A DNA stretch of 64,000 nt from Escherichia coli O157:H7 (GTDB lineage Bacteria; Pseudomonadota; Gammaproteobacteria; Enterobacterales; Enterobacteriaceae). A program made the position numbers. The stretch lies in NCBI RefSeq assembly GCF_013167455.1, contig NZ_CP038328.1, one strand, 5' to 3'. Numbering within the stretch: the stretch's first letter is position 1; each line of letters opens with the position of its first letter. Of this stretch, positions 15,001-18,000 are shown one piece after another.

Positions 15001-18000
15001 TTCTCGTCGGTGGATAATACAGAAACGCGCTGCACAGGAGTCTGCGGTTTACGTCGCCATTCAATCCCATGAGCTTCAAGTAATGAGACCAGACGGGCAT
15101 TTTCTGCCCTCAATGCAGCTAATTCATCACTGTCAGATTTATGAACCATATTCGTTACCTGTATCCGATCCACTGAGGCACCACGGCAGAAATTCGGGTC
15201 CCCTACACTGATGACAAAGCGCCCCGCCCTCTTCTGCCTATTAACTCAAGCACCTCCCAACAACTTACAGAAACTTAATTCTAATACCTAATACAGCTGT
15301 AATTCAGTTATGTCGTGGTCGGCCCCGGTTACTTTTTTCGGGAAGCCTGCTACGCCTCAGAATAATACCGTGTTCTTTCTGATCCTGTTTGGCCAGATAG
15401 CTAAGGGCGTAACGTAAGTCGTCTACCGCAGATTTATCACTATAGTGAATTACGTGATCGATACGCACCGGGTATTTGTCTTTAGCCCTGCACAGGTGAA
15501 AATAACCCTCCCCTTCCGTGATCCGCCTCCAGATATCTCCCAGTTGCCTGGATATCCGATAAGATTTGTTGTGACGTTGCCCATCCAGGTAGCCGATAAA
15601 ATGAATATGAAGTCCCTTGTTTGACGTATATTCCATTACCCAGTAATATCCCGCCAGCATCGTTTGGGTTTCACTAAGTAAGCGGTGCATTTCAATACAC
15701 ATACTGTGCCTACAGGAATGACCAAAACTGGGCGTGTCTTTCCTGTAGGCAAAATCAATTCTGAAAGGTAACAGTTTAGAAAAACGTTGAAACAGACCTT
15801 CCATGTGTTCATTCACGTCTTTCAGAATCATGAAGTCCATTTCGTAATTGGGATTAGCATTATACATTTTATAGTCCTTACTTTATAAAAGTTACAGGAA
15901 GGTGGAATTACATAAATACTGAGAGTACAGAAACGCCGTACCGCGGCATTAATAAACGAGGTAACCAGCAGCACAGACAACCTGATAAAACTGTTTCGTA
16001 TTACCTCATTACTCCAAAGAGGTAATATTTCAGAGTACAGTAAGACTCACTTAAACTGAGGACCAGTACGAATTACAATGGTAAAAACACACCTCATAGA
16101 ATTGAGTTTAAGGAAGTACCATTCAATCACTTACAGGAAGTAATCTGACATTCACAAAAGCCAGTATCGGGTAGCCACAGGCAACACCGCTATTAATACT
16201 TCTGTACCATTAAGTAAAAACAGCGACCCAGCTTAAGGCCTCTACAGATATTTAACTTCACCATAAAAATGATGGTATACAGACCATACCCCACACACCA
16301 TAAGAATATTATTTCATACAGGAAAGATTATATTTTTTCATACCTATAAACTGTAACAGAGCCATAACATACTCTAATAGTGTTCCGGTACGTAACCAGT
16401 GTTAAGTGCGTACAAGACAACATAACAGATCACATAACTTCCACTAATAATACTAATTAACCTAAATTATTTATTGAACACGAAAACAATGAAGGCCCCA
16501 CCTCACCTCAGACTAAAGCCGACAATATCCTGAGCAACACTCTATCCAATAGTAAATAGTGGTTACACCAGTTATATTTACTGACTGACCTGTACCAGAG
16601 TTTTCTAATACAACGCTGACATGGTAAAGACATTAGTCTCCTCCGCAAGTAGCAGAGGAGACTATATGTACTCAACGATTAAGTCGTTCAGAGGTCAAAG
16701 TTAGGTGCGACACACAACGTTTTTCCCTCAATAACCGGTACAACTCTGTTTTGTTCATACAGTAAATCCAGTAACCAGTTGATTTTATCCTTTTTCCGGA
16801 AACGGTTCGGACCACGCTGTAAAATGTCATTTTTTTTCATACAGAGGATCCCCTTCTCAATACAATAGCTTTTTATCCAGTTGAAAAGTTCAAGCTCCTC
16901 TGGAATGAGTCGCACAGGTACGGTCAGGGCAGAGTTGTCAAAAGTTAACGGATTAGACAACCGCACATACTCATTACCGTACCATATTGCTAATTCTCTC
17001 GCCATTTCTGCAGTGTAAGGGGAAATCTCCCCCTCTTCACCGCTCGAATGGTAAATAAGTCCTGCCAGTCTTGCCATATACTCTGCATTTTTAGCAGCAT
17101 ATTCCCGGCAATGTCTTAAAGGCCCCAATCCCCCCAGCTTCGATTCCACATCATTGTAATAATCCGTCCAGATTCTGGCAGCCTGAGGAGAAAAGTGAAG
17201 GCAACGTCGTTCACCACTCATCGCCAGACTTTCATCAATAAGCTCATTGATCATTATCCTTGTCCCCTGCGTTGATGTTGGTTGACACATCAAAAACCTT
17301 GCATGATGTCCTGACGTTTTCACAATTTCTTTTTTTCGCGTACAAAAACCTTTGTGGTAAACATCAGGCTGAATCATCACCGATATCGTCAGTCTTGGCT
17401 CCTTCAAATTAATTCCGGGAGATGATTTCCTGTCGATGAAAAGAGAACCTCCATCCCACAAAGTGTTAATAATTCCCAGTTTACTCATGGCCCGGCTGTC
17501 AAAAATTACCCCCCCTTCACTGGATACAAGAGCAAAAGAGCGATTGCTATCGGAGTAATATTTTAACATTCCCTCTATCGTTGTCTCATTAAAAATTGTT
17601 CGACGTATCTGCGGCGGAACAGGAGGTTTATTCAGATGCGTTTCAAGCTCTGATTCTGTTGCCTTGTAATCTTTACCGGCACGAATCTCTTTATGAAATT
17701 TTGATTCCAGCGCTTTTTGTTTTTGCTCCCATATTTCCTTTTCTGTACTGTAATTCTCAACCAGTTTCGCGTATTCATCCGCCAGGGCTTCATCCCTGAG
17801 ATAAAATGCTTTCATAAACACTTTATCCACGGTCGTTTTCCTTTCACCGGAATCAGCCAGAATCAGAGAGTAAAGATTAACAGGCCCATGTAAATTTCCA
17901 GGTCTGCACACGTCAATCTGATTCTGACAGGCAATTGAGATCGCTGTTAATGCGGATGTTGCCACCATAGCCAAAGGTGCCTGTGTATTTTTTTGAGTTT

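Follow-up and report, generated by a model that had tools for sequence, protein, structure and literature searches.

A conserved box upstream of a predicted HUH nuclease gene in the Escherichia coli O157:H7 island SpLE1 as a candidate cognate site

Among described systems, phage-inducible chromosomal islands (PICI), Staphylococcus aureus pathogenicity islands (SaPI) and P4 have origins in which iterons lie 3' of the pri-rep or alpha gene, and the phiX174-type origin is an AT-rich block of about 30 bp that is conserved across divergent relatives and has no hairpin. Here, we compare with such systems an 820-bp stretch (positions 15868-16687) from the integrase-proximal end of SpLE1, an E. coli O157:H7 island also known as TAI or OI-43/48. 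The stretch lies between ECs1303, a gene of the YfjI (DUF3987) family, and ECs1304, upstream of iee. The whole DNA that was analyzed, 64,000 nt in length and 100% identical to E. coli O157:H7 genomes, is referred to as the window, and all positions are those of the window unless stated otherwise. An initial annotation had read the stretch as a candidate island origin with iterons or as a non-coding RNA (ncRNA). An origin-type function is kept here on a new basis, namely the predicted HUH nuclease ECs1304 and a single conserved box of about 33 bp, the YfjJ box, as its most likely cognate site.

The two elements on which this proposal is built are the following:

16437-16469, minus strand: the YfjJ box, TAATTTAGGTTAATTAGTATTATTAGTGGAAGT, about 33 bp, with the core AATTTAGGTTAATTAG (16468 to 16453) and a near-palindromic TTAATTA(A/G) centre.
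15304-15867, minus strand: ECs1304, 187 aa, a YagK/YfjJ family protein named 'inovirus-type Gp2' by NCBI, with a predicted HUH Rep-type domain and a C-terminal RGRPR AT-hook.

Homologues of ECs1304 with 36-65% identity were found in Erwinia, Citrobacter, Yersinia, Limnobaculum, Rouxiella, Salmonella and a soil metagenome contig; a scan of genome contigs with the single ECs1304 protein gave 3 loci. Each homologue is preceded by 350-1240 bp of gene-free DNA in varied contexts, often with no DUF3987 gene nearby. In the Erwinia, Citrobacter and Yersinia loci, where this upstream DNA measures 540-620 bp, the box is the sole block shared with the window. It is also present in Y. intermedia, Limnobaculum and the soil metagenome contig, and degenerate versions occur in Rouxiella and C. 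braakii. On the gene strand, the consensus across loci is (G/T)AATTwrGGTTAATTArTrTTATy. The 17-mer AGGTTARTTARTATTAT was detected exactly once per locus in 16 loci, in every case ahead of the gene and in its orientation, and a k-mer footprint of eight non-Escherichia upstream regions peaked only at 16442-16471, a block common to six to eight of the eight. Within E. coli the box is 93-98% identical. A profile of the box recovers the window copy with an E value of 1e-7 (nhmmer), and with a profile search the box core, AATTTAGGTTAATTAA, also came up ahead of a second Salmonella paralogue, about 125 nt from it; this paralogue shares only 28% identity with ECs1304. Measured from the start of the box, the ATG is 84 to 959 nt away, depending on the locus, and in most non-Escherichia loci the box is flanked by the HUH gene on one side and by a divergently oriented cluster with anti-restriction, RadC and DUF932 genes on the other. 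Taken together, these comparisons indicate that the box is the sole deeply conserved non-coding sequence of the stretch, single-copy, upstream of the gene and co-oriented with it, and that it follows the ECs1304/YfjJ-like gene, not yfjI, through changes of neighbours, spacing and host genus.

The Salmonella contig (L266) carries tandem YfjJ-like paralogues at 239-817 and 1297-1869, the first 65% identical to ECs1304, and has too little sequence upstream of this first paralogue to judge whether a box precedes it. A pattern scan of metagenome and viral contigs with AGGTTANTTANTATTAT returned 240 loci, 4 of them with a YfjJ-like gene and the rest chance AT-rich matches. One hit (H60) is a fragment of 85 bp flanked by truncated genes and was discarded as a rearrangement relic, and matches on plasmids turned out to be mislabelled chromosome pieces.

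To the protein itself Pfam assigns REP_ORF2-G2P, below the gathering score, and YagK_YfjJ_C, both weakly. Across the 29 homologues compared, H87 never varies and H89 almost never (H-x-H), and the motif Y153-x-x-S-Y157-L-A-K is conserved (YxxK). The C-terminal R-G-R-P-R motif resembles an AT-hook (residues 181-185, window position about 15310-15327); R181 is invariant in the same set, and G182-R185 are nearly so. The AlphaFold model of ECs1304 has a pLDDT of 90, and a Foldseek search against viral models gave 67 hits at E <= 1e-3, headed by 'Inovirus Gp2'. Most of the further named hits are replication initiators of parvoviruses (NS1), microviruses and CRESS viruses, and many others are unnamed; a profile search against PDB sequences gave nothing relevant. 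By these motifs and the predicted fold, ECs1304 is assigned a putative HUH rolling-circle Rep-type nuclease domain, followed by an AT-hook that fits the recognition of an AT-rich box. The family comprises about 2400 clusters at 50% identity (2394), and many of its members have an extra N-terminal half and lie in int-alpA islands beside defence cargo.

Since the box is invariant and its neighbour is a catalytically intact HUH protein that needs a DNA substrate, we favour, with a confidence that stays somewhat short of an even chance, the reading that the box is the cognate DNA site of ECs1304, bound and nicked by it as an origin for rolling-circle replication or transfer. ECs1304 would bind the TTAATTA-centred core with its AT-hook in the minor groove and would nick one strand at the box, and this nick would provide the excised int-alpA island with an origin for rolling-circle replication or transfer. 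Because the box heads the transcription unit and contains -10-like hexamers, binding would probably also autoregulate ECs1304 and iee, although this is the weaker part of the proposal. The box seems too invariant for a mere promoter, as it is kept down to 28% protein identity, across genera and independently of spacing, with inconsistent -35/-10 registers. By analogy, its position between the HUH gene and the divergent anti-restriction/RadC/DUF932 block may correspond to the layout of a nic site and a leading region.

Several points weigh against a cognate site. Nick sites of HUH Reps and relaxases mostly lie within or next to a hairpin or inverted repeat, and around the box no such structure is conserved in 11 loci, where the short TTAATTA(A) palindrome stands alone. 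A second copy of the box, as a possible termination site, was not found in the window, iterons were absent from the examined loci save for one Citrobacter locus, and no close homologue of ECs1304 was detected in the inovirus genomes and small rolling-circle plasmids searched. The distant metagenomic instances of the box are individually weak by nhmmer. Finally, the box is AT-rich and holds -10-like hexamers, and a promoter or operator bound by, for example, an AlpA-family regulator explains its position and orientation equally well.

These distant instances were recognized by eye. Related boxes precede metagenomic homologues of 355-397 aa (L273, L276 and L277) in the form of AATTTAGGTATTAATATTATTAA, ATTTAGGTTTCTTATGTTATTAG and a TTAGG-repeat array with AGGTTAATTAGG. 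The array, at 3500-3580 of a marine metagenome island (L273), has about eight TTAGG/TTAGAT units including the latter sequence and lies upstream of a 94-aa open reading frame (ORF) and a 355-aa YagK/YfjJ homologue; the gene order there is integrase-like gene, alpA, TTAGG array, Rep-like gene and SMC-like defence gene. In K-12, ATAGGTA(A/T)TATATA is found upstream of yfjJ and yagK (L010 5395-5547 and L270 4950-5220), 63-210 nt from the ATG, which suggests that the box may be a feature of the whole YagK/YfjJ superfamily. All of these instances, from metagenomes and K-12 alike, individually fall short of significance and are at best suggestive. A broader generalization is less likely than not to hold: YfjJ/YagK proteins may be active HUH nickases with the AATTwrGGTTAATTA box as their origin, and would then form an unrecognized module for rolling-circle replication or self-mobilization of Enterobacterales int-alpA islands (CP4-57, CP4-6, SpLE1/TAI and relatives). 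If this is true, the O157 module could be functionally coupled to the downstream primase-polymerase-helicase IEE. YfjJ and YagK belong to the uncharacterized K-12 genes (y-ome), and their family is now paired with a defined DNA box of 16-33 bp.

The main alternative is nearly as likely as a cognate site, though also less likely than not: the box would be a promoter or operator only, at the start of an ECs1304-iee unit and bound by an island regulator such as the AlpA-family protein, with the following 570 bp as a long 5' leader and without any cleavage. This would account for a box that is always upstream of the gene and co-oriented with it, and for the hexamers fitting TAnTnT or TATTAT that it holds. 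In six loci alpA follows directly downstream in the same operon, as an ECs1304-alpA unit in other genera, and the hairpins that sequester the Shine-Dalgarno (SD) sequence in other genera would represent an RNA-level constraint on the proximal leaders. In the Cappable-seq data for strain EDL933, the 250 nt preceding the ECs1304 homologue contain no gene-associated transcription start site (TSS), whereas the alpA-like gene has a constitutive one (PMC10469882). The promoter of ECs1304 must therefore be located more than 250 nt ahead of its start codon.

However, the register of the -10-like hexamers varies between loci, and in several boxes the hexamer is degraded and lacks the key A or T (e.g. 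TGTTAT and TAACAG). A -35 element is neither conserved nor evenly spaced near the box across loci, and a consensus promoter scan of the window made no call there. Moreover, the best-conserved bases, AATTwrGGTTAATTA, fall where the sigma-70 spacer would be, and a distance to the ATG that varies this widely over unconstrained sequence is unusual for a dedicated promoter. A promoter would also leave the conserved and intact HUH active site next door without a substrate. If the box is only an operator, it is still the control point of the operon that expresses IEE. A mechanism like that of Pseudomonas aeruginosa AlpA antitermination, with an element between -35 and -10 and a leader terminator, was rejected, as no terminator is conserved in the short leaders; that AlpA is larger, resembles Q and is not known to be related to the PF05930 AlpA encoded by the island.

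The 820 bp as a whole are a composite intergenic stretch of three parts and not a single element. Nine aligned E. coli alleles were compared, with identities down to about 78% and lengths of 820-1210 bp. The zones, given as identity to the window allele, and the features within them are as follows:

16490-16687, minus strand: 3' flank of about 200 bp travelling with yfjI, 89-99% identical in yfjI-linked variants.
16634-16664, minus strand: strong hairpin with a 13-bp stem, 7 GC pairs and -18.5 kcal/mol, 24 nt past the yfjI stop codon.
16437-16480: zone containing the box, 93-98% identical.
15880-16436, minus strand: variable spacer or leader from the box to the ECs1304 start, with an indel hot spot at 16200-16436.
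16200-16436: zone of 50-80% identity with large gaps.
15868-16199: zone of 84-92% identity.
15875-15879, minus strand: SD sequence AAGGA of ECs1304, read from the sequence.
Third codon positions of the flanking genes: 81-96% identical.

Judged against the third codon positions, most of the region evolves at or above the neutral rate, and the roughly 570 bp between box and gene are a spacer or leader that changes at least as fast as synonymous sites. Compared with other alleles, the window allele is short of about 190 bp, many indels are not multiples of three, and no conserved ORF, repeat, terminator or structure was found in this part. A local hairpin at 15999-16027 shows non-compensatory changes in the variants when inspected by eye. 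About 90% of the 820 bp originally flagged is unconstrained spacer.

In an island type with a neighbour other than yfjI (L003), homology to the window ends near 16490 and the hairpin is absent; therefore, the first 200 bp or so belong to yfjI, with a terminator-like hairpin, and the DNA from about 16490 to 15868 belongs to ECs1304. The hairpin predicted in the initial annotation at 16637-16663 is real and lies one base away, at 16636-16662, within the longer 13-bp stem at 16634-16664. It is kept in all yfjI-linked variants and is followed by the tail AUGUCUUUAC, a weak U tail with 5 U in 10.

Other features proposed for the stretch fared unevenly. It indeed contains no ORF of at least 60 aa on either strand, the longest being 55 aa (16508-16675, minus strand) and a 50-aa ORF overlapping the edge. 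The small ORFs are interrupted in related E. coli islands by stops or frameshifts, so the stretch is not accounted for by small genes that had been overlooked. The short repeated words exist, but their positions had been given 1-2 bases off and each has two exact copies: ACAGGAAG at 15894 and 16133, with a third site near 16318, ACAGGAAA, matching at 7 of 8 bases, and GAGTACAG at 15923 and 16033. All direct-repeat families in 15800-16750 have two copies and none has more. By our own estimate, chance alone would yield about five repeated 8-mers in 820 bases, and the flagged 8-mers are two-copy matches at chance level. Across homologous islands these words vary or are deleted in the variants, and no conserved set remains. 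The ten GTAC sites were confirmed, but the excess is weak, with 5.3 expected from dinucleotide-preserving shuffles (P about 0.02) and 2.6 from mononucleotide composition. The GTAC density is the highest in the window; by eye, only about 4-5 of the 10 sites are retained in variant islands, and the excess is allele-specific. The GC content is 37.3%, compared with 45.5% in the window, and the plus strand is A/C-rich and G-poor. Of 5426 complete E. coli genomes, 1586 (about 29%) contain the region, which is unannotated in all genomes listed.

Some features of the leader were noted in passing. For 8 of 9 homologues from outside E. coli, base pairing between the SD sequence and a CU-rich stretch ahead of it is predicted, the sequences differing from case to case; in E. 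coli this pairing is weak. Over the last 60 nt or so before the ATG in L016, L018, L020 and L262-L266, this pairing is accompanied by a semi-conserved AAAAATTAC(A/G) about 45 nt upstream of the ATG, which is weak or altered in E. coli. The sense strand of the short leaders (L016, L018, L020, L262, L263 and L267) is A/C-rich and G-poor, with a GC skew of -0.25 to -0.39, whereas the long Escherichia leaders (window 15868-16436) have the opposite skew of +0.10 to +0.14, as if extra DNA had been inserted in inverted orientation.

Transcription can enter the spacer from both sides. The window runs antiparallel to the Sakai genome (Sakai coordinate = 1394102 - window coordinate; for EDL933, CP008957, the coordinate is 1080236 - window coordinate). 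On the ECs1304 side the source is the following promoter:

15621-15656, plus strand: antisense promoter TTGACG-17-TAATAT inside ECs1304, with a TSS 7 nt after it, firing into the ORF-free region (promoter scan and Cappable-seq).

In the Cappable-seq data, the antisense TSS at 15656 (+) appears in both island copies of EDL933, at 1064580(-) and 1464731(-), and an internal sense TSS in yfjI at 16968 (minus strand; EDL933 1063268), each in 8/8 conditions (PMC10469882). The transcript from 15656 covers the ribosome-binding site of ECs1304. The TSS at 16968 lies 280 nt before the yfjI stop codon, and its RNA may end at the 16634-16664 hairpin (about 335 nt) or enter the spacer.

These start sites speak for the view that the main product of the region is an ncRNA, either a cis-antisense RNA from 15656 or a 3'-derived RNA from 16968 that ends at the hairpin, and the plus strand folds somewhat better than shuffled sequences (z -2.34). 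We nevertheless regard this as improbable. The minus (sense) strand folds like shuffles (z -0.87), no conserved structure was detected, and an Rfam search of 12000-20000 at E <= 1 gave no relevant match; a structured ncRNA is not supported. No plus-strand terminator was found downstream of 15656. Only O157-type alleles have the -35 of the antisense promoter, and a pair of Tyr codons imposes its -10; spurious promoters are common in AT-rich acquired DNA. Most of the sequence is neutral and carries indels, and the list of Hfq-crosslinked small RNAs (sRNAs) contains none at Sakai 13774xx-13782xx. The known O157 sRNA Esr41 was considered and lies elsewhere in the island, between z1181 and z1182.

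Slightly less probable again is that the region is the oriT_rM6 assigned to TAI islands and is used by a helper MOB_M relaxase and not by ECs1304. In the text of a preprint, the O157 TAI islands are grouped with the 'iOriT' elements, which lack a relaxase, and are given an oriT_rM6 about 60% identical to the SGI-4 oriT region, but where in the island the oriT lies is not stated there (bioRxiv 10.64898/2026.01.13.699239). The stretch is among the largest conserved intergenic stretches of the island backbone; however, the window covers only 23.5 kb of the approximately 86-kb island and the oriT may lie outside it, the region is found in many non-TAI islands, and distant blastn matches comprise only int-alpA-yfjI-type islands and no conjugative-element context.

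The remaining possibility, an iteron-type vegetative origin of a phage-inducible or P4-like island placed 3' of yfjI and served by YfjI, is very unlikely and largely refuted by the comparative data. In its favour, the DNA has a low GC content (37%) and follows a DUF3987 gene on its 3' side in an island of the int-alpA type. However, the conserved part of the region tracks the ECs1304/YfjJ-like gene in loci without a DUF3987 gene nearby, the yfjI-linked part carries only the hairpin and is missing from loci with another neighbour than yfjI, no repeat family in the window exceeds two copies, the flagged words are not kept together across islands, and half-box repeats occur at chance level (1 found, 0.56 expected), the array of three 22-nt distal half-box repeats with 45-46-nt spacing in one Citrobacter relative having no counterpart in the other loci examined. 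This array lies at 4745-4857 of a Citrobacter metagenome contig (L018), where 0.08 repeats were expected.

The island spans Sakai 1370598-1456845, and positions 1-23504 of the window are its first 23.5 kb, the remainder of the window being chromosome. The genes flanking the stretch and ECs1304 are:

16688-18091, minus strand: ECs1303 homologue, upstream flank, annotated as a YfjI family protein (Pfam DUF3987, E 1e-76).
12789-15173, minus strand: iee (ECs1305), next gene 3' of ECs1304 and co-oriented, annotated in Sakai as 'IS-excision enhancer IEE' (Pfam AEP-TOTE, E 2e-98, and ResIII/Helicase_C).

According to Pfam, IEE is an AEP-TOTE primase-polymerase fused to an SF2 helicase, TOTE being merely the name of the primase domain family. 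IEE drives excision of the insertion sequence IS629 and genome rearrangement in O157. The gene is intact in the window, split by IS1203 in FDAARGOS_293 and frameshifted in EDL933, and in many related islands it is truncated or swapped for other cargo. Beside the integrase, a 605-aa ORF (20124-21941, plus strand) has a GC content of about 32% and no Pfam match; unrelated-looking hypothetical genes of 545-627 aa hold similar positions in related islands. A literature search on ECs1303/ECs1304, on YfjJ/YagK function and on TOTE found nothing specific, and the published IEE overview is silent on the DNA upstream of iee. Besides IEE, the cargo of islands with this backbone includes urease, tellurite resistance, the Iha adhesin and defence systems.

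When the locus is set beside the known systems, each shares part of its layout. With the PICI, SaPI and P4 origins it has in common the int-alpA backbone and a replication-type gene followed by AT-rich non-coding DNA, but it lacks iteron arrays, and its conserved element is linked to the HUH gene and not to the DUF3987 gene. As in the Ff phages (M13/f1), where the intergenic region adjoining gene II carries the plus-strand origin, large non-coding DNA lies directly upstream of a 'Gp2-type' Rep gene. However, the Ff intergenic region has dense functional hairpins, whereas the stretch here has no conserved structure and is mostly unconstrained, and none of the inovirus genomes searched has a close ECs1304 homologue.

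The Reps of CRESS-DNA viruses, such as geminiviruses and circoviruses, share the HUH and YxxK motifs with ECs1304, and CRESS and parvovirus Reps are among its structural matches. The TA(A/G)TATTAT part of the box matches the nonanucleotide TA(A/G)TATT|AC at 8 of 9 positions, with the same A/G variation. In contrast to the CRESS origins, the box has neither the stem-loop nor the final AC, and ECs1304 has no SF3 helicase domain; the invariant part of the box is AATTwrGGTTAATTA and not the nonamer, which is absent from the Salmonella paralogue.

ECs1304 falls outside the recognized MOB families, no inverted repeat flanks the box, and the published oriT is of MOB_M type, all of which differ from a relaxase-proximal oriT. 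What resembles such a site is a conserved element that occupies the first large gap between genes ahead of an HUH-type gene, facing, in other genera, a divergent anti-restriction/RadC/DUF932 block reminiscent of a leading region. The island family itself is proposed, in the preprint, to move by conjugative hitch-hiking (bioRxiv 10.64898/2026.01.13.699239).

In phiX174 the origin is located inside gene A, and gpA is much larger and has two catalytic tyrosines, whereas the box lies upstream of a gene for a 187-aa protein with a single YxxK motif in a chromosomal island. What the two have in common is an HUH initiator, predicted in the case of ECs1304, together with an AT-rich block of about 30 bp, and microvirus Reps are among the structural matches of ECs1304.

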